Virus genome (UHGV): UHGV-0071814
Length of the DNA stretch: 36,915 bases
Source: a virus
Reading direction: 5' to 3' (one strand)
Part shown: in pieces, positions 7,443 through 24,202 of the stretch
Numbering within the stretch: position 1 is the stretch's first letter
Layout: every line of letters starts with the position of its first letter
Program-made: the position numbers and the translations under genes
Notes under the pieces: generated by a model
Seen by the model: the letters and a program-made list of their open reading frames with translations, nothing else
Databases searched by the model: none
Told to the model about the DNA's origin: nothing

Positions 7443-8860
7443 TACTCAATCCTTATCTGGCAACCAGACAGAGTGACAGGTGACTTCGTGATAACGCGCA
7501 ATTTGAAACCGACATTTTTCCTGATGCGCCCTACTCGCTTCCACAAAACGCGTTTGTCGTAAACGAACGGTTCATTCTGCTCAATCATCTGCTCACGCCC
7601 GTAATTGATGCCGTCAGTGGTTGCAGAGAGGAACAGGCGGTCGGCGTACTGAGCTACGCCAGTGGATGATTCCACCTCCAGATCGAAGCATCTGGCGTTA
7701 TCCGCTTTGAACAGTGGAGTAAACAGCAGGTGTTCCTGTTGAAGCCCATACTGACTGCTGATATCGAACTGCAATTTCCCGGTCACCGATTCCAGCTTAT
7801 CGCCGCACGTTATCTGATTTCCTTCGTAAATGAAGTCGATAGCGCGGTACACATCGTCATACAAGCCTGTTTTCAGTACACACCATTGTGGGCCATTGGC
7901 GCTTGAAGATGCGTCGTACACGAGGACGTGACGCGGAAGGTGGATAATCAGCAACTCATGAGCATCAAATCGCAGAGACTCCATCACGCCATCAGCCAGT
8001 TCATCAGCAGTGTAGGAGCGGAGGATTTTCTCAATGCTCGCGCTGGCGATTGGTGATACCTGACCAGATCCGATGATGTACACAGACGGCGCACCTGTTG
8101 CCGGATTGCTGATGAACGCATACGAATCAGCGAATGGTGTTTTACAGTAGGTTCCGGCAATACCTTTCTGCACCATCAGCGATGGCTGCGCGACATACAA
8201 AGCAGCACCAACGGTAGTTGCGCCTGTCAGGGAGAAATATTCAATCGTCGATGAACCAAAGCAGACGATGAAGTCTCGCCATGTTCCGATGCCGATGATG
8301 CCGTCAGGCTGAGACTCGGCACGATATTGTGCGCTGTAACGGTCAGGATGTGTTTCGTCATCAAGGTCAGTGATAAACCATGAATCAGTGCCGTCTTTTG
8401 ACCACGCATAACGCCCGCGCAAGCGCGTAATGTCACGAACCGAACCTAACTCATACTGAGTGAATCCGCTATCTGTAGGCCAGTTTGAGACGGTTTTAAC
8501 CGTGCCATCATAGCGGTATTCGACCAGTTGCCCGTTAACACCTACCGCCTGTGATGTCCGACCATGTGCCATTGATACGCGACCACTTCCGGCAACGTCA
8601 CCGACTTCACTTTCGCCTTTGTAGAGCTTGCCACCACACACGCGATAAACAGCACTCTGCGCCATGTTGTACTCGACGCCGCGCGATACACCGTTCACAT
8701 CAGAGCGTTTGGCAATGCCCGGGAATGAGCGAAGATATCCGCTGCTGTTCAGGATTTCTTTGGGTGTAGCCAACATATTCACTGGCAGATAGTCGATATA
8801 GTCAGCGTTTCGAAAGTCTTTGCCGACACCTTTCATAAGCGGAAGTTGCTGAATCGGCAT
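7442..8860 (-). CDS. Tail hub/head completion protein (P22 gp10-like)
   Basis: 472 aa (same length as P22 gp10), synteny. Confidence 0.75.
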
Positions 8861-9541: not shown

Positions 9542-10795
9542 TTACTGCCCGGCAATAACGATGCCCGTATATTCAGGAACAAGTACAGAGCAACCGTACA
9601 GAGTGGTGAAACGAGCAGTGGTTACGCCTTTGATGTGGTCGAAGGCGTAAGACATGATCAGCGTAGCGCCCTGCTCGGTGGTTGCTGTCATTACCTGTGG
9701 ACCCTGACCAGTCGGGAACGCTAGTTTGCCGTACATCAGCTCAACAGAACCATCAGCCCAGAACAGGTTAGCAGGTGCTGCGTTCTTGTTGAGAATGGTG
9801 ATTGCTGCTGATTCTGCCGGTTTGGCATCGACGTTTGCATATGGACGACTCGCAACATCGGTATTTTCAACAGGGAGAATCTTTGGAGAGATTGTTACGG
9901 TAGTTCCGCTAACAGCCAGAACACGGAATACCTGCGGTTGCCCGGTGGTATCTTTTGTGATCTGGTGTACGGAATTCACACCGGCAATGGTGAACGCATC
10001 ACCAACCTGCAAGCCAGATGCAGATACCGTAATAGTCCCCTGTCGGTTATCAACTGGCATACCATTTGAATCTTTCGCTTCAACCTTGTGTTCAGGTTGG
10101 CCTGATACTGTCAAGGATTCAGCGCTTCCTTTCGGTAATCGACCAGAAATATCGGTCTTGTAGCTATCAAAGGAAGCAACCGGAGGGATCTGCGCTTTTT
10201 CGTATGCTGTCAGGGTTGCGCCCTGAGCGTAGGCACGGTGACCAAGCTCGCCAGCAAGGTCTTTGTAGTTGAAGGGGTTCCAGAAAGAGCGACGGTTGAT
10301 ACCCTGCGGTACACCAATCGCCGTCATGGTGGCATCAATACCTGCCGCACAGTTCCACAAATCACGGCCCTGTGTACCTGTGGTTGAGTCAGACATTGTG
10401 ATCACGTTAGTAGCACGCTGCGTAACCATGGAAATCAGGTCAGAGTCAATCTGTGCAGCAAGGCGCATACCTGCGGCGCGACCAGCTTCAGTTTTATGCT
10501 CAGGGTCACGCATTTCACGCGCATCCAGAGTGTACAGAATGTTTTTCGGCTCCTTGAACACAGAAGGAACAAGGCGCTGAACCAGTGCTGTAGGCGTTTT
10601 GCTGCTGAGATCGAGGCCTTCCTCAATGTTCATGTGGTAATGCTGCGGACGATACAGAACATCACCTGCTCGCTGCATTGCTGTATCACCGGGACGGAAT
10701 TTTTTAGCGTTACGGGAAACTACGCAGGCGGCCTCAAAGCCTTCAACGTAGTTTTCGAACATGATTTCAAGGTCTTTTGCTAATTGGTTAGCCAT
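9542..10795 (-). CDS. Major capsid (coat) protein, P22 gp5-like
   Basis: 417 aa, follows scaffold and portal in P22-like order. Confidence 0.85.
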   Translation of the reverse strand: MANQLAKDLEIMFENYVEGFEAACVVSRNAKKFRPGDTAMQRAGDVLYRPQHYHMNIEEGLDLSSKTPTALVQRLVPSVFKEPKNILYTLDAREMRDPEHKTEAGRAAGMRLAAQIDSDLISMVTQRATNVITMSDSTTGTQGRDLWNCAAGIDATMTAIGVPQGINRRSFWNPFNYKDLAGELGHRAYAQGATLTAYEKAQIPPVASFDSYKTDISGRLPKGSAESLTVSGQPEHKVEAKDSNGMPVDNRQGTITVSASGLQVGDAFTIAGVNSVHQITKDTTGQPQVFRVLAVSGTTVTISPKILPVENTDVASRPYANVDAKPAESAAITILNKNAAPANLFWADGSVELMYGKLAFPTGQGPQVMTATTEQGATLIMSYAFDHIKGVTTARFTTLYGCSVLVPEYTGIVIAGQ

Positions 10796-15852: not shown

Positions 15853-16095
15853 TTATGCTCCGGTAGTGAACAGGTCTAACGCTTCCTTCGATTTACGTAC
15901 CGCTTCGATAGTGCGGGTCGTGATATCTGAATTAGCGCCGCCTGACTGGAAGTGAATTTTGAATAGCTCAAGCTTCAGCTCGTCAGTGCCGATGAATTGA
16001 AATGCTTCTTCTGCGGCTGCGTTCTGGTTCATGACCAGCTTGTAAATCTCTAACTGGAATTTCTGTTCTTCAGTCATGGGAATAATCTCTGCCAT
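15853..16095 (-). CDS. Hypothetical protein
   Basis: 80-aa ORF with GGAG upstream, adjacent to TerS. Confidence 0.45.
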   Translation of the reverse strand: MAEIIPMTEEQKFQLEIYKLVMNQNAAAEEAFQFIGTDELKLELFKIHFQSGGANSDITTRTIEAVRKSKEALDLFTTGA

Positions 16096-16198
16096 TGTTG
16101 GCTCCGTTTATCCGTTAAAAGGGATATCAGTTAAGTTATCCCGTGTAGGGTATAAGCCATTATCAAAGCCACTCTGTAGGGAATGGCTTTTGTAATAA

Positions 16199-16570
16199 CT
16201 ACTGTTCGCTTAGCTTCTGCTTCAGCAAGTAACCTTCGAGCATCCAGATTTTGTTTACAGCATTCTGCCGGGCAATCTTCCGACCGATCTCCGGGTCGAA
16301 GTTTTCCGGGCTGGCGCAGGCACTTTCGCCGGTGACGGTGAAGCCGTTGCGCAGCACCAGGACGCAGAATGTAAGAAGCTTTAATGCTTCCTGACTTTCG
16401 GTTAAATCAAGCGCGGATTTGTATGTCGCCATAGCGCCCTCTCCGCCAATACCATCGTATGCGGTGAAGCAATGCTCGCTTTTAATCACGTCTTCGATGT
16501 GCTGCGGGGTGATTCGCGGTGCCGTTTTGCCTTTCTCAACGATTTCTTTTTCGATTTGCTGGTCGTTCAT
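16199..16570 (-). CDS. Gp49-like phage protein (N4 gp49/Sf6 gp66 family)
   Basis: 123 aa, MNDQQIEKEIVEKGKTAPRITPQHIEDV... recalled as this family. Confidence 0.5.
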   Translation of the reverse strand: MNDQQIEKEIVEKGKTAPRITPQHIEDVIKSEHCFTAYDGIGGEGAMATYKSALDLTESQEALKLLTFCVLVLRNGFTVTGESACASPENFDPEIGRKIARQNAVNKIWMLEGYLLKQKLSEQ

Positions 16571-16748
16571 AATTATGACCCTGTAGAGTGGTTGCTTGAT
16601 TAGGATGTCTTTCCATCAGTCCGCCACCACAAAGAATCTTTTTTGCCATAAGGCTGGAGGTTCATCTTTCAGTGGCTGCCAGTGTTATTTCCCCACTTAC
16701 TGGCTTGGGTTGTTTCGCTGTACTGCCGTTAATTGGTGAGTCCGGGGA

Positions 16749-17234
16749 TTATTTCAGTTCGTTACCAGGCATTTCTTTTAGCTCTTTCAAATGACAACGA
16801 TTGAGACTAAACCACTCCCCGTGCGACCTATAGTTGTAATATTTTTGGTGCAATTTGGTTTCAAGCTCTCTATCGGCCGGAATCTTTGCAATTAGATTTA
16901 GCTTCCCACCACTCATGCGAGATATCTCTGAAATCCGTTTATTAACCCTGCGACTAAACCCTATTTTTGTTAGCCCACTATCTTCAGCATGCAGAACGTA
17001 CACATATGATTTTTGCGAAGCACTGGGTGCGACTTTGTTGTAATTAATCATGTCAAACATGAAGCCTTGCTTTAGCAAAGTTTCAAAAAAGATAGAATTA
17101 ACACACCCATTCCTTCTCAGCTCTGCACTTAGCTTGTCAATTTCCTCTATGATGTCGCCAGACCCCTTTCCACTTATAAGAAAATCTTGGTACATGCGAC
17201 CAATTCTTGAGGTAATTTCAACAAAGTTATTCAT
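16749..17234 (-). CDS. T5orf172 (GIY-YIG-like) domain protein; AT-rich moron
   Basis: C-terminal YVYVLHAEDSGLTKIGFS...LHQKYYNYRSHGEWFSLN fits the T5orf172 pattern; markedly AT-rich versus flanking genes. Confidence 0.6.
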   Translation of the reverse strand: MNNFVEITSRIGRMYQDFLISGKGSGDIIEEIDKLSAELRRNGCVNSIFFETLLKQGFMFDMINYNKVAPSASQKSYVYVLHAEDSGLTKIGFSRRVNKRISEISRMSGGKLNLIAKIPADRELETKLHQKYYNYRSHGEWFSLNRCHLKELKEMPGNELK

Positions 17235-17378
17235 AGCGTTTACCTTTTAGAAAGATGAGCCTGTTCGCACAGAAAAGCCGCCCCGAGATGGTCGCCACCA
17301 TATACGGCAGTTCTCAGGCTCAGCTTTCTGAAAGACTCGGGATTGTTACGCGCTGCGATGCGCGGTTTACTGCAGATG

Positions 17379-17404
17379 TAAAAAAGCCCCGCAAATGCGA
17401 GGCT
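17379..17404 (-). terminator. Intrinsic terminator-like hairpin (CCTCGCATTTGCGGGG + TTTTTT) between Rz and the T5orf172 gene
   Basis: Read on minus strand. Confidence 0.45.
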
Positions 17405-17577
17405 AAATCCTGGTGTTTGTGATGACTGGCTCTTATCTCAACGCAGCCCCTTACCGCGCGCCAGATGCTCAATATCAAGCATCAGCAATGAGATGTTTAA
17501 TCTGGATTCACTCCAGAAGTGTTCACCACCCTTCCTACAGAGCCAGATGTGAAGGATGATGAGTAAAATTATCGCTA

Positions 17578-18015
17578 TCATCGAAGGCATTGCGTCCTGA
17601 TGTACTCCTGCAGGTAGTTAACCTGCGCGGTTATCCTGTCGATTCCACTTCGGAGACGGTAATAATTGAGTTCAGCATCTGCTGTAAGTCTTGGGCTTTC
17701 TCCATCGCCCATGCTGCTGGCTCCGGTCGTTGACTTTGCACAGGTGGCGGCGACTTGCAGGCGCTTACGACCAGCAGAAACATCAGCACGGAGACTTTCG
17801 ATAGTCGCGTTAGCATCAGCAAGCTCCTTTGTGTATCTGGCGTCGAGTTCTGCTACATCACGTTGACGCTTCTGCATGTCAGCGATGATGGATGTGGCTT
17901 TATCGCGCTGGTCTTTGTAGGCGATGGCGTTATCACGGTAATGATTAACAGCCCATGACAGGCAGACGATGACGCAGATAACCAGAGCGGAGATAATCGC
18001 GGTTACTCTGCTCAT
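17578..18015 (-). CDS. Rz: Rz i-spanin
   Basis: [31 protein letters not shown]...; N-terminal TM helix, lambda Rz-like. Confidence 0.85.
17631..17822 (-). CDS. Rz1: Rz1 o-spanin lipoprotein, embedded in the +1 frame of Rz
   Basis: Signal peptide, lipobox VVSAC, proline-rich [13 protein letters not shown]; fully nested in Rz. Confidence 0.75.
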
Positions 18016-18488
18016 ACCTCAATCTCTCTGACCGTTCCGCCTGCTTCTTTAAATTTTGCAATCAGGCTGTCAGCCTTATGCTCGAACTGACCATAACCAG
18101 CGCCCGGCAGTGAAGCCCAGATATTGCTGCAACGGTCGATTGCCTGACGGATATCACCGCGATCAATCATCGGTAAAGCGCCACGCTCCTTAATCTGCTG
18201 CAATGCCACAGCGTCCTGGCTTTTCGGAGAGAAATCTTTCAGGCCAAGCTGCTTACGATAGGCATCCCACCAACGGGAAAGAAGCTGGTAACGGCCTGCA
18301 GCTGTTGATTTGAGTTTGGGGTTTAGCGTGACAAGTTTGCGAGGGTGATCTGAGTAATCAGTGAATAGCTCTCCGCCTACAATGACGTCATAACCATGAT
18401 TTCTGGTTTTCTGTCGTCCGTTATCAGTTCCCTCTGACCACGCCAGCATATCGAGGAACGCCTTACGTTGATTATTGATTTCCACCAT
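18012..18488 (-). CDS. R: Endolysin, lambda R-type lytic transglycosylase
   Basis: 158 aa [35 protein letters not shown]..., near-identical to lambda R as recalled. Confidence 0.9.
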
Positions 18489-18795
18489 CTTCTACTCCGG
18501 CTTTTTTAGCAGCGAAGCGTTTGATAAGCGAACCAATCGAGTCAGTACCGATGTAGCCGATGAACACGCTCGTTATATAAGCGAGATTGCTACTTAGTCC
18601 GGCGAAGTCGAGAAGGTCACGAATGAACCAGGCGATAATGGCGCACATCGTTGCGTCGATTACTATTTTTGTAAACGCACCGCCATTATATCTGCCGCGA
18701 AGGTACGCCATTGCAAACGCAAGGATTGCTCCGATGCCTTGTTCCTTTGCCGCGAGAATGGCGGCTAACAGGTCATGTTTTTCTGGCATCTTCAT
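18472..18795 (-). CDS. S: Holin, lambda S-type (dual-start Met1-Lys2-Met3)
   Basis: 107 aa [22 protein letters not shown]...; three TM segments. Confidence 0.9.
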
Positions 18796-19037
18796 GTCTT
18801 ACCCCCAATAAGGGGATTTGCTCTATTTAATTAGGAATAAGGTCGATTACTGATAGAACAAATCCAGGCTACTGTGTTTAGTAATCAGATTTGTTCGTGA
18901 CCGATATGCACGGGCAAAACGGCAGGAGGTTGTTAGCGCAGCCTCCTGCCACCCGCTTTCACGAAGATCATGTGTAGAAGGCCGCAGCGTAACTATCACT
19001 GATGAGTTCAGGATAGCCAGTGGCTACGGCTCAGTTA

Positions 19038-19113
19038 TGGTGCTGGTTAACGGACTTGAACCGCTACCCATTCGCTTACAAGGCGACTGCTCTACCATTG
19101 GAGCTAAACCAGC
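19038..19113 (-). tRNA. tRNA, probably Thr (anticodon UGU)
   Basis: Manual fold: 7-bp acceptor stem, D arm GCTC/GAGC, anticodon loop CUUGUAA, T arm with GGTTCAAGTCC, 3' CCA. Confidence 0.6.
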
Positions 19114-19118
19114 ATATT

Positions 19119-19193
19119 TGGCGGGACAGCGTGGACTCGAACCACGATAAGAAGGTTAACAGCCTTCCGTAATGACCTTTATACGACTGACCC
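19119..19193 (-). tRNA. tRNA, probably Asn (anticodon GUU); one T-T mismatch in acceptor stem
   Basis: Manual fold: anticodon stem GAAGG/CCTTC, loop CUGUUAA, T arm GGTTCGAGTCC, 3' CCA. Confidence 0.55.
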
Positions 19194-19196
19194 AAA

Positions 19197-19216
19197 TAAA
19201 AAATCCCGAAACCGTT
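19197..19216 (-). terminator. tR'-like intrinsic terminator (end of lambda 6S-like leader)
   Basis: Minus strand AACGGTTTCGGGATTTTTT; flanking sequence matches my recollection of lambda tR'. Confidence 0.6.
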
Positions 19217-19386
19217 GTGCAGGCTCTAACTATTACCTGCGAACTGTTTCGGGATTGCATTTTGCAGACCTCTCAGCCTGCTATGGTTGGAGTTCCAGAC
19301 GATACGTCGAAGTGACCAACTAGGCGGAATCGGTAGTAAGCGCCGCCTCTTTTCATCTCACTACCACAACGAGCGAATTAACCCAT

Positions 19387-19878
19387 CTATCCCATACTGG
19401 AGAATTCACCATGATATTTTATCCTGGCATTTTCCATTGCCTTTCTCGCCTCCTCGATATCGTCAAAACACCCTACATGAATCCTTTTACCATTGACCCT
19501 AATTCTTCCAACCCACTTGTTTGCAGCAGAATTAAAAGTCACCCCCTTCACACCAGATGAATTGTTTTTCCTCATCTTGCTGTTCCATGAGTTTTGAGTG
19601 TTAGTAACAACACGAAGATTGGCTATCCGGTTATCAGATCTATCACCATTAATATGGTCAATCACATCGGTTGGCCAATCATTGTAAACCATCAGCCATG
19701 CAATTCTATGGACATATAGCCGCATTCCATAAAGTTTTACCTGCAGATATCCATTTGTTTCATAGCCAACAACAGCGCCATAGATAAATCTAGAGGACCG
19801 AGGTGGATTCTTCCATGTAAGAATTCCAGTATCTGGATTGTAATTAAAAAGTCTCAATGCATCTTCACGTTTTAACAT
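19387..19878 (-). CDS. HNH homing endonuclease with C-terminal AP2-like domain
   Basis: 163 aa; ...VHRIAWLMVYNDWPTDVIDHINGDRSDNRIANLRVV...SGVKGVTFNSAANKWVGRI... Confidence 0.7.
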   Translation of the reverse strand: MLKREDALRLFNYNPDTGILTWKNPPRSSRFIYGAVVGYETNGYLQVKLYGMRLYVHRIAWLMVYNDWPTDVIDHINGDRSDNRIANLRVVTNTQNSWNSKMRKNNSSGVKGVTFNSAANKWVGRIRVNGKRIHVGCFDDIEEARKAMENARIKYHGEFSSMG

Positions 19879-20078
19879 AGGCGAACCACATAGATATTAG
19901 AGCCTGCTGACATAGAAATATCACCACGAGAGAAGTCGCCAAAAGCGATATTTCTCAGGCTCTATTCCTATGTGCTCTCGAGTTTATGATGCGCATGTCA
20001 GTGCGCTTAGAACTTAAAGATGAGGTGGGTAAAAGCTGAAAGAATGTGAACGGATATAAATCTGCCATTCTTGGGTCA

Positions 20079-20107
20079 AATTTACCCAACTTTATTCAAA
20101 AAGTCAA
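20079..20107 (-). promoter_or_regulatory. Late promoter PR' (-35 TTGACT, 17-bp spacer, -10 TAAATT) with Q-utilisation region
   Basis: Minus strand TTGACTTTTTGAATAAAGTTGGGTAAATT just downstream of Q; closely resembles lambda PR' as recalled. Confidence 0.6.
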
Positions 20108-20149
20108 TATCATGCCGTTAATATGTTGCCATCCGTGGCAATCATGCTG

Positions 20150-20773
20150 CTAACGTGTGACCGCATTCAAAATGTTGTCTGCGATTGACTCTTCTTTGTG
20201 GCATTGCACCACCAGAGCGTCATACAGCGGCTTAACAGTGCGTGACCAGGTGGGTTGGGTAAGGTTTGGGATTAGCATCGTTACAGCGCGATATGCGGCG
20301 CTTGCTGGCATCCTGGAATAGCCGACGCCTTTGCATCTTCCGCACTCTTTCTCGACAACTCTCCCCCACTGCTCTGTTTTGGCAATATCAACGGCCCGGC
20401 CAGTACCGTGGCAATCTCTGCATCTTGCGCCCGGTGTCGCGGCACTACGGCAATAATCCGCATAAGCGAATGTTGCGAGCACTTGCAGCACCTTTGCCTT
20501 AGTATTTCCTTCGAGCTTTGCCACACCACGGTATTTCCCCGATACCTTGTGTGCAAATTGCATCAGATAGTTGATAGCCTTTTGTTTGTCGTTCTGGCTG
20601 AGTTCATGCTTACCGCAGAATGCAGACATTCCGAATCCGGCTTGTGATTGCGCCATCCCCATAGCAGCCATCACATCAGTACCGGAAAGAGAGTCAGAAG
20701 CCGTAGCCCGTGGTGAGTCGCTCATCATCGGGCTTTTTGGCGAATGAAATTTAGCTACGCTTTCGAGTCTCAT
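20150..20773 (-). CDS. Q: Late antiterminator Q (lambda-type)
   Basis: 207 aa MRLESVAKFHSPKSPMMSDSPRATASDSLSGTDV..., near-identical to lambda Q as recalled; zinc-binding Cys cluster. Confidence 0.9.
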   Translation of the reverse strand: MRLESVAKFHSPKSPMMSDSPRATASDSLSGTDVMAAMGMAQSQAGFGMSAFCGKHELSQNDKQKAINYLMQFAHKVSGKYRGVAKLEGNTKAKVLQVLATFAYADYCRSAATPGARCRDCHGTGRAVDIAKTEQWGRVVEKECGRCKGVGYSRMPASAAYRAVTMLIPNLTQPTWSRTVKPLYDALVVQCHKEESIADNILNAVTR

Positions 20774-20958
20774 GGTCTTCCCCTCTTGCCCTGTTTGACC
20801 ATCAGGACGCCGTTAACTATTACGTGACGCTCACCTTTGCTGTCTCGGTTGTACTTGAGCACTGTTCCTCTTGCACAGGAAAGCATCCTCGCCACTTCGG
20901 TCTGATTGCCTCGTGTCTGGATAAGAAGCTCTGGTATCGTTTGAATTGTGGCGTTCAT
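20770..20958 (-). CDS. ninH: NinH-like protein
   Basis: 62 aa with GNQTEVARMLSCARGTV HTH-like motif, position between rusA and Q. Confidence 0.65.
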   Translation of the reverse strand: MNATIQTIPELLIQTRGNQTEVARMLSCARGTVLKYNRDSKGERHVIVNGVLMVKQGKRGRP

Positions 20959-21317
20959 ACGTTCTCCAGTTCGGTGATTTTTATTCCAAGCCTTCCGCCT
21001 GGTACTTTCACGCCACGAATTACGCGAATGTCATCGAATTGCTCGTCGTCTTCCGCAAATCCGGCGTGGATAAGGGAGTCGAGTAAACCTTTCAGGATGT
21101 TGTCGAGGTCGCGGCGGCGGGAGTCTGGAACGTCTGCGATGACTTTGATGCGGAGTCGTGATTTGGTGAAAATGTCTAACTTGAGTTGGCGGATGATTTG
21201 CTGAACGTCTTTTCGGTATTTCTGGCCTTTATCGCTGATGTAGTATTGGCTTCCCCGTCTTCGCCAGTAGGTGTTCAGCGACGGTGGGTACGGAAGTGTG
21301 AATCTGTATTCTGCCAT
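20955..21317 (-). CDS. rusA: Holliday junction resolvase RusA
   Basis: 120 aa MAEYRFTLPYPPSLNTYWRRRG...; RusA family. Confidence 0.85.
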   Translation of the reverse strand: MAEYRFTLPYPPSLNTYWRRRGSQYYISDKGQKYRKDVQQIIRQLKLDIFTKSRLRIKVIADVPDSRRRDLDNILKGLLDSLIHAGFAEDDEQFDDIRVIRGVKVPGGRLGIKITELENV

Positions 21318-21842
21318 TTATCCTCTCCCATGATTATGGTGATAGCCCAATCGTGATTCCGCCAATTTTCTGGCATTAACGGCTAGAGATATGTCATCGT
21401 ATAATCCAAGAAATATCTTTTTATTATCACTGTTTATATATGCGCCCCACTTTTTATTCTTCTTATAGTAGGCAACACCAATTACTCCAGAGCGATTATT
21501 AATAGGCTTTTTTCTGTTCCTTGAGTTCTGTTTATCATCTACAACGCGCAAATTGCATATTCTGTTATCGCTTTTAATTCCATTTATGTGGTCAATTTCC
21601 CCATCAGGTTCACTTCCATAAAAGGATATCCATGCGATTCTATGAGCTCGACAAACTTTTTTATTTACAGATATACGAACGTATCCTTTTTCATCTATAG
21701 AACCAGCAATCTTACCGGCATATGTTGAATTCCAGCACTCTCTTACACTTTCTCTTCTCTTGTATATAAACAAACCTGTTTCGCTATTATATTCATACAA
21801 TTCATTGATTTCTTTTTGTGTTGGATATCTTTTACCGTTCAT
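21318..21842 (-). CDS. HNH homing endonuclease with AP2-like domain (paralog of 19387-19878), AT-rich
   Basis: 174 aa; ...RAHRIAWISFYGSEPDGEIDHINGIKSDNRICNLRVV...SGVIGVAYYKKNKKWGAYI... Confidence 0.7.
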   Translation of the reverse strand: MNGKRYPTQKEINELYEYNSETGLFIYKRRESVRECWNSTYAGKIAGSIDEKGYVRISVNKKVCRAHRIAWISFYGSEPDGEIDHINGIKSDNRICNLRVVDDKQNSRNRKKPINNRSGVIGVAYYKKNKKWGAYINSDNKKIFLGLYDDISLAVNARKLAESRLGYHHNHGRG

Positions 21843-22129
21843 GGCTTAATCTTCCCCTCCTTCAGCAGTATCGCCTGCGTCCTGATCACGCCTTCGAGGT
21901 GGTAAAGTCTGGCGTCTTTGTTGTCGAGATTATAGGTGCGTCGGTCGATTTCATCGTGACACGCGCTACAAGCCCATGCGCCGATCAGGTCGTCAGGCTT
22001 CATTCCCGTTCCGCAAATTCCAGCCATCCGGTAATGTGCCAGAACTGTAGTTTCAGGATTGCCATTGCATACGCCGTAAATACGTACCTGGCATTCTCTG
22101 CCGCGTGCTTCTTTGCGTAGATTAGCCAT
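21839..22129 (-). CDS. Cys-rich phage protein (NinX/DUF1364-like)
   Basis: 96 aa with CQV...C...C...CSAC spacing; family assignment from memory. Confidence 0.45.
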   Translation of the reverse strand: MANLRKEARGRECQVRIYGVCNGNPETTVLAHYRMAGICGTGMKPDDLIGAWACSACHDEIDRRTYNLDNKDARLYHLEGVIRTQAILLKEGKIKP

Positions 22130-22851
22130 TAAGCAGCCTCCCCTGTTACTTTCAGCATTCCGTTATCGAGCAGCTTTCTGGTCAGCCACTGTTGACCACG
22201 CCCGGTGATTTTTGTGGTGAACGATATCTGTATTCCGTGATTTGTGTTGACCGCTGTTTCTTTCACTGTGAAATAGCCGCGCTCCATATATTCCTGCATT
22301 GGCACATTGCGCCGGGAACCTGAAGCAATAAGGATTTTGTGATCGCGCATCCACGCAAACAGTTTGTTTGGACCAATTCCAACAACCTTTGCAAAGTTTC
22401 CAATCAAAATTCCACTGGCCTCGCCAACGCGATCGGCAAACTCAACTTTAGGTGCGGCAATTGCGAGCTGGTTTTCCAGTTGCATTTTCTGCTCAGCAAG
22501 ATCAGCAGCAAGGCGCAACGCTTCTGGTAGCGTTTTTGGGATATTAACCGCAGCTTCTTCAAGCTCTCGCCAACGGTCAACAAGGCGAGCCGTGAATTCC
22601 GGCGACAACTGGGCAACGACAATAATGCTGTCGCGCTTACCTTGTTCGCCTTCGAAGACGTAAGCCTCGACACTACGGCGCAGTCCTAAGTTATTGATTT
22701 TTTCGAAAACCTGCAATGCAGGAAGTTGAATAACTCCAGATTTAGCCAGGCGCTCTATTGATATTTTTACATTATCTGGACGACTTCCCACCAACTCAGC
22801 GATTTCAATGCTTGTCATTTTGATGGCATTGCCATTTATTAACTCATTCAT
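22129..22851 (-). CDS. Rha-family regulator/antirepressor (Rha N-terminal domain + KilA-C/ANT C-terminal domain)
   Basis: 240 aa; domain assignment from memory of family patterns. Confidence 0.6.
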   Translation of the reverse strand: MNELINGNAIKMTSIEIAELVGSRPDNVKISIERLAKSGVIQLPALQVFEKINNLGLRRSVEAYVFEGEQGKRDSIIVVAQLSPEFTARLVDRWRELEEAAVNIPKTLPEALRLAADLAEQKMQLENQLAIAAPKVEFADRVGEASGILIGNFAKVVGIGPNKLFAWMRDHKILIASGSRRNVPMQEYMERGYFTVKETAVNTNHGIQISFTTKITGRGQQWLTRKLLDNGMLKVTGEAA

Positions 22852-23014
22852 CGTCTTCTTCCTCGTACATTGAGCTATTCGGATCGCTCATCAGTTCTGC
22901 GCAGCAGTGCTCACACACGTGAACTTCCAGCACATGCAGCTTCTGACCGCAGTTAGCGCACGTTAAAGCCCGCTCGACGCTTTCTTGTTCGTAACTTCGA
23001 TTTGGGTCAATCAC
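22844..23014 (-). CDS. Small zinc-ribbon protein (NinF-like), GTG start
   Basis: Manual translation (M)[55 protein letters not shown]; GAGGA 7 nt upstream of GTG; stop overlaps downstream start; absent from ORF track (<60 aa). Confidence 0.35.
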
Positions 23015-23193
23015 CTTGTTTTCCTCGCACGTTCTCTAAGCCACCGGATATCCCACAGGTGAGCCGTGTAGTTGAAGGTTTTTACGTCAGATTCTTTTGG
23101 GATTGGCTTGCGTTTATTTCTGGAGCGTTTCGTTGGAAGGTATTTGCAGTTTTCGCAGATTATGTCGGTGATGCTTCGTCGCTGTCGTCTCAT
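23011..23193 (-). CDS. ninE: NinE-like protein
   Basis: Internal ATG at 23193 gives 60-aa [52 protein letters not shown]...; ATGA overlap with methylase stop. Confidence 0.6.
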
Positions 23194-23717
23194 GCAGCCC
23201 TCCTGACGCCCTGCCCGATCGCCATCAATGCCGCTTTGGATACGGTAGTAAACATCCGTCGAGGACTGATGAACGGTCGCCAAATCAGCAGCATGGAGCC
23301 TTTGCTGTTTCCCTTCTTCTCCAGCCCTGTCGATGGTTCGATAAAATTAATCCGTCCATCAGTGATAATACGAACTTCGTCAACACTCTCCAGAGCCTTG
23401 CTGAACCATCCGACAGACATATCCTCTGGCACAAGCATCACTACCGTCTGTCGCTGTTGTATACACTGCTCAGCGGCTTTTTCCACCCACGGCCTGATAT
23501 TGCTGTACGGTGGGTTATTCCAGATTGCACCGTGGCTTACCCACTCAGAATTGAGCGCGTCGTCGTCCTCAGTTAGCCAGTGAGCACACAGAGCATTTTT
23601 GTCGCTCGCTGCCGAATCCAGCCAGAATCCAAACTCAATATCCAGTGCATCAAAAAGCCAAAGCGGCGTTTGCCAGCAGTCCTTGTCGTGTGCTGGCGTA
23701 TTTGATTTGATAGTCAT
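23190..23717 (-). CDS. DNA N6-adenine methyltransferase (phage Dam-like)
   Basis: NPPY motif (WNNPPYSN); start [18 protein letters not shown]... at ATG overlapping ninB stop. Confidence 0.75.
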
Positions 23718-24154
23718 GCAGCCCGATCTCCCCATCTCGCTTTCCACTCCAGAGCCAGTCTCGCTTCGTCTGACCACTTAACGCCACGCTCTGTACCGAA
23801 TGCCTGTATAAGCTCTAATAGCTCCGCAAATTCGCTTACACGCATCCTGCTGGTTGACTGGCCTATTACCACAAAGCCATTCCCGGCAAGGTTAGGAACA
23901 ACATCCTGCTGCTTTAATGCTGCGGTAAACACACACTTCCAGCTTTCTGCATCCAGCCAGCGACCATGCCATTCAACCTGACGAGAGACGTCACCAAGGC
24001 AAGCCCAAAGCTTTCGATTCTGGTCTAAGCTGCGGTTGCGTTCCTGAATGGTTACTACGATTGGTTTGGTTGGGTCTGGAAGAATTTGCTGTACCGCGTG
24101 AATAGCGTTTTGCTGATGTGCTGGAGATCGAATTTCAAAGGTTAGTTTTTTCAT
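23714..24154 (-). CDS. ninB: NinB recombination protein
   Basis: MKKLTFEIRSPAHQQNAIHAVQQILPDPTKP..., near-identical to lambda NinB as recalled; start trimmed to MKKLTF. Confidence 0.85.
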   Translation of the reverse strand: MKKLTFEIRSPAHQQNAIHAVQQILPDPTKPIVVTIQERNRSLDQNRKLWACLGDVSRQVEWHGRWLDAESWKCVFTAALKQQDVVPNLAGNGFVVIGQSTSRMRVSEFAELLELIQAFGTERGVKWSDEARLALEWKARWGDRAA

Positions 24155-24170
24155 GACTTCCCTCTCCCCC

Positions 24171-24202
24171 AAATAAAAAGGCCTGCGATTACCAGCAGGC
24201 CT
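24171..24202 (-). terminator. Intrinsic terminator (tR2-like) between helicase gene and ninB
   Basis: Minus strand AGGCCTGC-TGGTAATC-GCAGGCCT followed by TTTTTATTT. Confidence 0.6.

Follow-up and report, generated by a model that had tools for sequence, protein, structure and literature searches.

We identified in the nin region of a P22/lambda-type prophage a small gene, HNH1, that is probably a free-standing homing endonuclease gene of the HNH-AP2 (I-HmuI-like) family which spreads by intron-less homing; its product is a predicted nuclease. The observations behind this reading are the domain architecture and fold of the product, the exact and optional insertion of the gene, its fixed site, its foreign composition, its low diversity relative to the flanks and the rusA haplotype linked to it. 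The DNA analyzed (the whole 36,915-nt stretch of virus genome UHGV-0071814, hereafter the window) represents an almost complete prophage with integrase, immunity, replication, nin, Q, lysis and head genes. Positions 15887-23378 of the window are 100% identical, at the same coordinates, to the ENA metagenome scaffold ERZ28568323 BAEC15-1_SAMEA2580094_METAG-scaffold_296, and are also identical to a Logan contig of ERR525877 (compared as loci L021 and L023).

Results

Position and composition of HNH1

The features of the early-right operon around HNH1 were as follows.

23714-24172, minus strand: NinB
23190-23777, minus strand: Dam methylase
22844-23014, minus strand: NinF
22129-22851, minus strand: KilAC antirepressor
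21839-22129, minus strand: ybcO/DUF1364, a Cys-rich putative nuclease gene, upstream neighbor of HNH1 (Pfam YbcO PF07102, E 6e-44)
21839-21842, minus strand: ATGA overlap of the ybcO stop and the HNH1 start (junction sequence)
21318-21842, minus strand: HNH1 ORF, 174 aa, ATG start, intact (ORF list, Pfam HNH_3, phrog_99, AlphaFold2 model, filled/empty alignment)
21318-21842, minus strand: HNH1 insertion, 525 bp, same span as the ORF
21322-21329, minus strand: GGGAGAGG, Shine-Dalgarno-like sequence within the last HNH1 codons (..HGRG-stop), followed by TAAATG
20955-21317, minus strand: rusA, Holliday-junction resolvase gene, downstream neighbor of HNH1 (Pfam RusA PF05866, E 2e-16)
21274-21317, minus strand: rusA nt 1-44, carrier haplotype (SNP map, junction table, 100-nt search, pi = 0)
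20770-20958, minus strand: NinH
20150-20773, minus strand: Q

The initial annotation had described a strikingly AT-rich gene for a 174-aa protein with the core HRIAW...IDHING..SDNRI.NLRVV, lying between rusA and a Cys-rich nin gene with abutting or overlapping stops, and we found all of this as described. The GC content of HNH1 is 0.349 and its GC3 0.286, vs. 0.50-0.52 and 0.54-0.58, respectively, for ybcO, rusA, ninH, and Q. The TGA stop of ybcO, the Cys-rich gene, shares bases with the HNH1 start, and the TAA stop of HNH1 abuts the rusA ATG. The two kinds of junction read:

empty site: ...AAGCC ATGAACGAATAT...
filled site: ...AAGCC ATGAACGGTAAA...(HNH1)...CATGGGAGAGGATAA ATGGCAGAATAC...

The end points of the insertion are ambiguous by ~7 nt, because ATG(A/G) is present at both ends. 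As the ybcO stop overlaps the rusA start (ATGA) in empty sites, HNH1 inherits a coupling that otherwise serves rusA. The new rusA start of filled sites, ATG-GCA, was brought by HNH1, and GGGAGAGG is a putative, Shine-Dalgarno-like ribosome-binding site for rusA that would be supplied by HNH1 as well. According to the junction alignment, both ybcO and rusA are undamaged by the insertion. An internal HNH1 promoter was considered and rejected: the only consensus match lies antisense in AT-rich DNA, and the region has fewer matches than its shuffles.

Domains and predicted fold of the HNH1 protein

HNH1 matched Pfam HNH_3 (PF13392) over residues 65-108 with 60.7 bits (cut-off 24.8; E 1e-16) and, over residues 1-173, the "HNH endonuclease" family phrog_99 (E 7e-63). 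In a 70-sequence family alignment H67, D84-H85, N87, D92-N93, N97, and N109 are invariant and N106 is at least 90% conserved; the conserved residues align to the DH...N...N motif of I-HmuI. No match was obtained in NCBIfam, and in PADLOC the protein hit just the generic "HEase" model, weakly, and no specific defense or exclusion family. As sequence searches of the PDB gave marginal results (I-HmuI at E 0.016 by phmmer; AP2 matches at E 0.6-0.9), a comparison of folds was needed.

For this we used an AlphaFold2 model of HNH1 built from the family alignment, with a mean pLDDT of 94.2. The best structural match of the N-terminal ~111 residues was I-HmuI (PDB 1U3E; Foldseek E 4e-4, probability 1.00, 111 aligned columns), and this part of the model has the beta-beta-alpha-metal fold together with the I-HmuI-type N-terminal region. 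The C-terminal part is modeled as an AP2 fold with strands at 123-126, 131-138, and 141-148 and a helix at 151-165. Superposition of the last 45-50 residues on AP2 domains from plants (TEM1, WRI1, AtERF1) gave 1.2-1.6 A and a probability of 1.00. On the strength of these fold matches and of the invariant residues, we assigned to HNH1 a predicted I-HmuI-like HNH nuclease head and an AP2-fold DNA-binding tail. The AP2-like tail had been proposed from the sequence, and it is borne out by the predicted structure and by BLASTP homology to the Pfam-positive AP2 region of a second protein of the window, HNH2 (19387-19878), but not by Pfam itself: AP2 (PF00847) reached 14.7 bits (E 0.038) against a cut-off of 33.3 and covered profile positions 1-28 only.

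Relatives and origin of HNH1

The initial annotation had further called HNH1 a diverged relative of HNH2, and the two as paralogous. BLASTP aligned them at 40% identity over 156 aa (E 1e-30), so that they are not unrelated, and a profile made from 70 family members matched exactly these two proteins in a six-frame translation of the window. They are thus members of one family. A duplication within this phage is not indicated, however; at 40% identity, and with HNH1 equally distant from HNH2 and from unrelated metagenomic homologs, a recent origin of HNH1 from HNH2 was rejected, and the two are better described as old family members.

Among 5.8 billion proteins, HNH1 formed one 90% cluster found entirely in E. 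coli, and its next full-length relatives were 46-49% identical. Relatives occur in ~3,500 phage genomes; none of those in the phage genome collection is more than 60% identical, so no donor phage can be named. The sole relative among GTDB species representatives was a 41% identical protein from a Kiritimatiellae MAG, which is uninformative. The picture suggested by these sequences is of a gene that arrived recently from an unsampled AT-rich source and was then passed among lambdoid backgrounds.

HNH1 is an optional insertion at the ybcO/rusA junction

HNH1 was detected in 33 of 5,426 complete E. coli genomes, always as a single copy adjoining DUF1364 and, in 32 of the 33, with an identity of at least 99%. 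The gene is an intact annotated CDS in 30 of these matches and in all carrier loci that were fetched. The ybcO and rusA flanks matched 1,001 records from the same genomes. For an evenly spaced sample of 40 rows from the ranked matches, the flanks were contiguous (650 bp, i.e., 1,175 - 525) in 34 (~85%), and extrapolation from this sample gives roughly 850 empty sites in total. One such empty allele is that of E. coli JNE132847 (NZ_AP028094, 2829100-2829300). The occupancy is therefore low, with 33 of ~900 sites (~3-4%) filled and ~96% of otherwise similar phages lacking HNH1; this is not what would be expected of a very efficient drive. The gene is clearly not universal at its position, and neither is HNH2 at its own, found in 16 of 5,426 genomes; the comparison with relatives proposed along with the initial annotation thus came out in favor of mobility for both.

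In addition, the rusA start codon was found to be a mosaic junction in two loci (L005 2597-2600 and L007 2597-2600), where it follows a KilAC antirepressor remnant or an unrelated small ORF and not ybcO.

HNH1 is less diverse than its flanks

Ten carrier loci (the window, L002, and L009-L016) were compared; estimates of diversity and selection rest on these 10 loci and on 10 variable sites in the gene. The carriers are different lambdoid mosaics. Upstream of ybcO they have the KilAC antirepressor or one of three unrelated small ORFs, they span three Q types, and their terminases are of the cos type (nohD, L010) or of the headful/PBSX type. The same YbcO allele can moreover be found with and without the gene: WP_000002244 adjoins an empty site in L003 and a filled one in L002, L011, and L015, and WP_000002243 an empty site in L006 and a filled one in L009. 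Nucleotide diversity (pi) among the 10 carriers was 0.0063 for HNH1, vs. 0.033 for ybcO and 0.027 for rusA nt 45-363, so that the diversity of the gene is about one fifth of that of its flanks. Four loci that share one HNH1 sequence differ from each other at 8-22 flank positions; under uniformity, the probability that none of these differences falls within the gene is 5e-3 to 5e-7. The variable sites of HNH1 comprise six synonymous and four non-synonymous ones (over 104 synonymous and 418 non-synonymous sites), giving a dN/dS of ~0.17 for the 10 loci.

Lambdoid phages recombine freely, and passive shuffling could also account for the movement of an inert gene flanked by ybcO and rusA, which are conserved. 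According to such an explanation HNH1 was inserted once, now encodes an inactive or irrelevant nuclease, and is moved by homologous recombination in the ybcO/rusA flanks. The high mosaicism of lambdoid nin regions would suit it, and the rusA start is itself a module boundary (preceded by other genes in L005 and L007); so would the low occupancy and the presence of a carrier, L015, with a frameshifted rusA beside HNH1. We nevertheless consider passive transport unlikely. An irrelevant nuclease is difficult to reconcile with an ORF that is intact in the carriers listed and inspected, with the conservation of all catalytic residues, and with the dN/dS estimate given above. Points of exchange lie 1-45 bp from the ends of HNH1, while the gene itself gained only 0-6 changes, which implies that recombination was stimulated locally.

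A rusA haplotype linked to HNH1

The two flanks of HNH1 behave differently. For rusA, compared on a MAFFT alignment owing to the 1-bp frameshift in L015, nt 1-44 are invariant in all 10 carrier loci, and their haplotype was not found in HNH1-less alleles. The rusA 5' end of carriers, ATGGCAGAATACAGATTCACACTTCCGTACCCACCGTCGCTGAA, differs from that of the common empty allele, ATGAACGAATATCAGTTTGTGCTTCCATACCCGCCGTCGGTGAA, at codon 2 and at 12 further positions. When a 100-nt query from the carrier rusA 5' end was searched, exactly 33 full-length matches were returned, each abutting HNH1; gene-less alleles aligned only in part and differ from the carrier tract at 12 or more positions. From nt 45 onward the carriers are polymorphic again, with variants common to empty alleles, and on the ybcO side they are polymorphic up to positions -11 and -1, likewise with variants common to empty alleles. 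An invariant rusA tract on one side and a polymorphic ybcO on the other is the pattern expected if the empty allele is broken within or beside the 5' end of its rusA. Based on this pattern, the target of HNH1 is probably the ybcO/rusA junction together with the 5' end of rusA, and nt 1-44 of carriers are predicted to be a co-converted, cleavage-resistant version of it. Single pieces of the carrier haplotype are nonetheless present in alleles without HNH1 (L005 has nt 12-21, L007 has nt 33 and 40); the tract may therefore partly mark the ancestral background and not cleavage resistance.

We also considered that the AP2 fold might read a GCC-box-like CCGCCG at rusA nt 30-35 (CCACCG in carriers); this is unsupported, as the same change is present in the gene-less L007. 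A separate observation concerns L015 (E. coli NRZ105822), where the rusA following HNH1 (7639-8000) lacks 1 bp near nt 69, is thereby frameshifted, and carries a pseudogene annotation.

HNH2 occupies a separate site in the PR' leader

The window contains the following features between Q and the lysis genes.

20079-20107, minus strand: PR' late promoter, TTGACT-17-TAAATT, near-identical to lambda PR' (comparison with lambda)
19387-20068, minus strand: HNH2 optional insertion, 682 bp, made up of a 190-nt structured leader and the ORF (filled/empty alignments)
19387-19878, minus strand: HNH2, HNH_3 + AP2 endonuclease gene, 163 aa (HNH_3 E 6e-17; phrog_99 E 1e-75; AP2 34.2 bits, which passes the threshold)
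19196-19256, minus strand: tR' terminator, lambda-type 6S RNA, downstream of HNH2 (alignment with lambda)
19038-19193, minus strand: tRNA-Thr(TGT) and tRNA-Asn(GTT), directly after tR' and followed by holin and lysozyme

The HNH2 insertion lies in the initial transcribed region of PR', just after the -10 element and inside the sigma-70 pause element of the Q-utilization site (19387-20072, minus strand). The lambda-type leader at this site is AACGATGGGTTAATTCG. In the lambda-type empty site TAAATTTGACCCAACG is followed directly by ATGGGTTAATTCG, and the filled site reads TAAATTTGACCCAAG[AATGGCAGATTT...GGGATAG]ATGGGTTAATTCG. All HNH2 carriers have AAGAAT, vs. AACGAT or AACAAT in empty alleles; by the change from AACGAT to AAGAAT a -10-like hexamer was thus rebuilt at the insertion. 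Full-length copies were found in the 16 genomes mentioned above, and many others have the same PR' leader without HNH2. HNH1 and HNH2 assort independently: L002 has only the former and L003 only the latter, none of the 5,426 complete E. coli genomes has both, and the combination was seen in metagenome scaffolds only.

HNH2 is placed between PR' and tR', i.e., upstream of the terminator. Given the constitutive activity of PR' in lambda, transcription of HNH2 from the resting prophage is possible. The 190-nt leader folds into a long, unusually stable hairpin with an MFE of -56.8 kcal/mol (z = -3.76 vs. shuffles; 19870-20075, minus strand). This hairpin stops just before the HNH2 start codon, where no obvious Shine-Dalgarno sequence was seen, and it may serve in translational or processing control.

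Two further observations were made on this part of the prophage. The tRNA-Thr/tRNA-Asn pair is present in L003, L004, L010, L011, and L015 and absent from L018-L020, which have the same holin; it is another optional cassette in this interval. A 161-aa protein with a T5orf172/MUG113 domain (E 1e-9 and 4e-13; 16749-17234, minus strand) is encoded behind the lysis genes, in a variable slot that is filled by Rha, KilA-N, or DUF551 genes in relatives. This family is likewise treated as homing-endonuclease-like in phages, and the gene could be a third mobile nuclease gene of the prophage.

Sister genes at other sites

Further HNH-AP2 genes were found in related prophages, at 9588-10094 and 10901-11512 of L010 (which carries three in all) and at 9071-9577 of L013/L014. 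One sister gene splits ninF into two annotated fragments and one is located between the helicase gene and ninB. The "HNH endonuclease" next to ninG in L018 (5307-5682), known by its annotation alone, may be another case. The HNH-AP2 genes of E. coli lambdoid prophages are 35-42% identical pairwise, have a GC content of 0.35-0.40, and are all optional, with a separate fixed site for each; by these sequence comparisons the sister genes are independent colonizations and not copies of HNH1. With several such fixed-site genes in related prophages, the recurrent intron-less homing suggested by the initial annotation fairly describes the whole region.

Discussion

A model for the spread of HNH1

In the model we favor, HNH1 is a selfish site-specific element that has settled in the nin region of lambdoid phages of E. 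coli, at the ybcO/rusA junction. Having no promoter of its own, it would be read within the delayed-early PR operon, translationally coupled to ybcO and, judging from lambda biology, made only during lytic growth or induction. During replication of a carrier in a cell that also contains a related phage or prophage whose junction is empty, the protein would bind the empty allele through its predicted AP2 domain and nick or cut it, presumably within the first ~44 nt of rusA or at the junction itself. The lesion would then be repaired by recombination with the carrier, whereby the 525-bp gene and the 44 nt of rusA next to it would be copied. The stretch between the break and HNH1 would always be co-converted, while the exchange on the far side could resolve anywhere in ybcO. 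Carriers would be protected from re-cutting by the 44-nt rusA tract and by the disruption of the site by the insert. HNH2 is supposed to have done likewise at its separate site in the PR' leader.

A role of HNH1 in the service of the phage was also considered. As a domesticated or competitive nuclease, HNH1 would cut the DNA of competitors (marker exclusion, or interference with resident or superinfecting lambdoid phages), or it would make breaks that feed NinB/YbcO/RusA recombination; such a function is compatible with homing. Its position among recombination genes and the purifying selection acting on it point in this direction, as do the weak match to the PADLOC "HEase" model and a precedent from lactococcal phages, whose I-HmuI-like HNH genes show marker exclusion when expressed (PMC12724721). 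Yet HNH1 is rare, sporadic, and conserved in no lineage, it matches no specific defense or exclusion family, and both its composition and its isolated place in sequence space speak for a foreign gene that arrived recently, so that we regard a benefit to the phage as quite improbable as the main explanation. Finally, a packaging function, in which HNH1 would assist terminase in concatemer cutting as HK97 gp74-type HNH proteins of lambdoid-like siphoviruses do (PMC10448857), can practically be dismissed, given that HNH1 belongs to the early nin operon, ~5.5 kb away from the terminase genes, co-occurs with both cos-type (nohD, L010) and headful/PBSX terminases, is missing from ~96% of otherwise similar phages, and has an HNH_3/I-HmuI-like domain with AP2 and not a packaging-type HNH.

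Comparison with known systems

The closest parallel to homing by HNH1 is the mobE gene of phage T4, a promoterless free-standing HNH gene between nrdA and nrdB; the nick made by MobE and the points of recombination lie, in the phage lacking the gene, in the 5' region of nrdB (PMC2790892). Both genes are promoterless, free-standing, and wedged between two genes of an operon, both are expressed by read-through, and in both cases the 5' region of the downstream gene is implicated, by the nick of MobE and by the linkage of HNH1 with the first 44 nt of rusA. MobE differs in combining HNH_3 with a zinc-finger DNA-binding part where HNH1 has AP2, and in residing in a virulent T-even phage where HNH1 resides in temperate lambdoid phages. 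Furthermore, the activity of MobE was established by experiment, while that of HNH1 is predicted from comparative data. I-HmuI, the HNH nicking endonuclease of SPO1 and the best match among solved structures, shares with HNH1 the N-terminal beta-hairpin region and the HNH beta-beta-alpha-metal core; it is, however, intron-encoded and ends in a helix-turn-helix, whereas HNH1 is free-standing and ends in an AP2 fold.

The combination of HNH and AP2 is that of a recognized homing-endonuclease family of phages, cyanobacteria, and ciliates/protists (PMC10448857, citing Magnani et al., 2004), with examples in Xanthomonas phages (PMC2248197). HNH1 has the same order of domains, an N-terminal HNH followed by a C-terminal AP2, and matches phrog_99 over its full length; it differs in that full-length proteins beyond its own cluster reach at most 49% identity with it and in that its AP2 part is too diverged for Pfam. 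The same family includes HNH2, the gene that splits ninF, and the one located between the helicase gene and ninB, all of them likewise optional and low in GC; their insertion sites are different and their sequences diverged. In the literature searched we found no description of the HNH1 insertion at the ybcO/rusA junction or of the HNH2 insertion in the PR' leader.

A broader joint reading of these genes may be offered tentatively, and we hold it to be rather doubtful. The early-right/late-promoter region would be a colonization zone for site-specific HNH-AP2 homing genes, with at least four or five sites (the ybcO/rusA junction, the PR' leader, the inside of ninF, the space between the helicase gene and ninB, and that next to ninG), and the breaks made by their products would drive the classic mosaic boundaries of lambdoid phages. 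In addition, HNH2, transcribed from the resting prophage, would be a weapon permanently at hand, cutting the qut region of lambdoid phages that lack the gene and that enter, or already reside in, the same cell.

In RefSeq HNH1 is simply annotated as "HNH endonuclease signature motif containing protein". It is a well-delimited case of a known enzyme class and no new type of system, and it alters nothing known about that class. Most work on homing endonuclease genes has dealt with virulent phages, such as the T-even phages, T5, SPO1, and ICP1. HNH1 in complete E. coli genomes offers a clean natural experiment in temperate lambdoid phages, with an exact pair of empty and filled sites, an occupancy of ~3-4%, a linked 44-nt flank that predicts the site of action, and sister genes elsewhere. 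Both the specificity of the enzyme for its target and the part that such nucleases play in lambdoid mosaicism thereby become open to direct tests.
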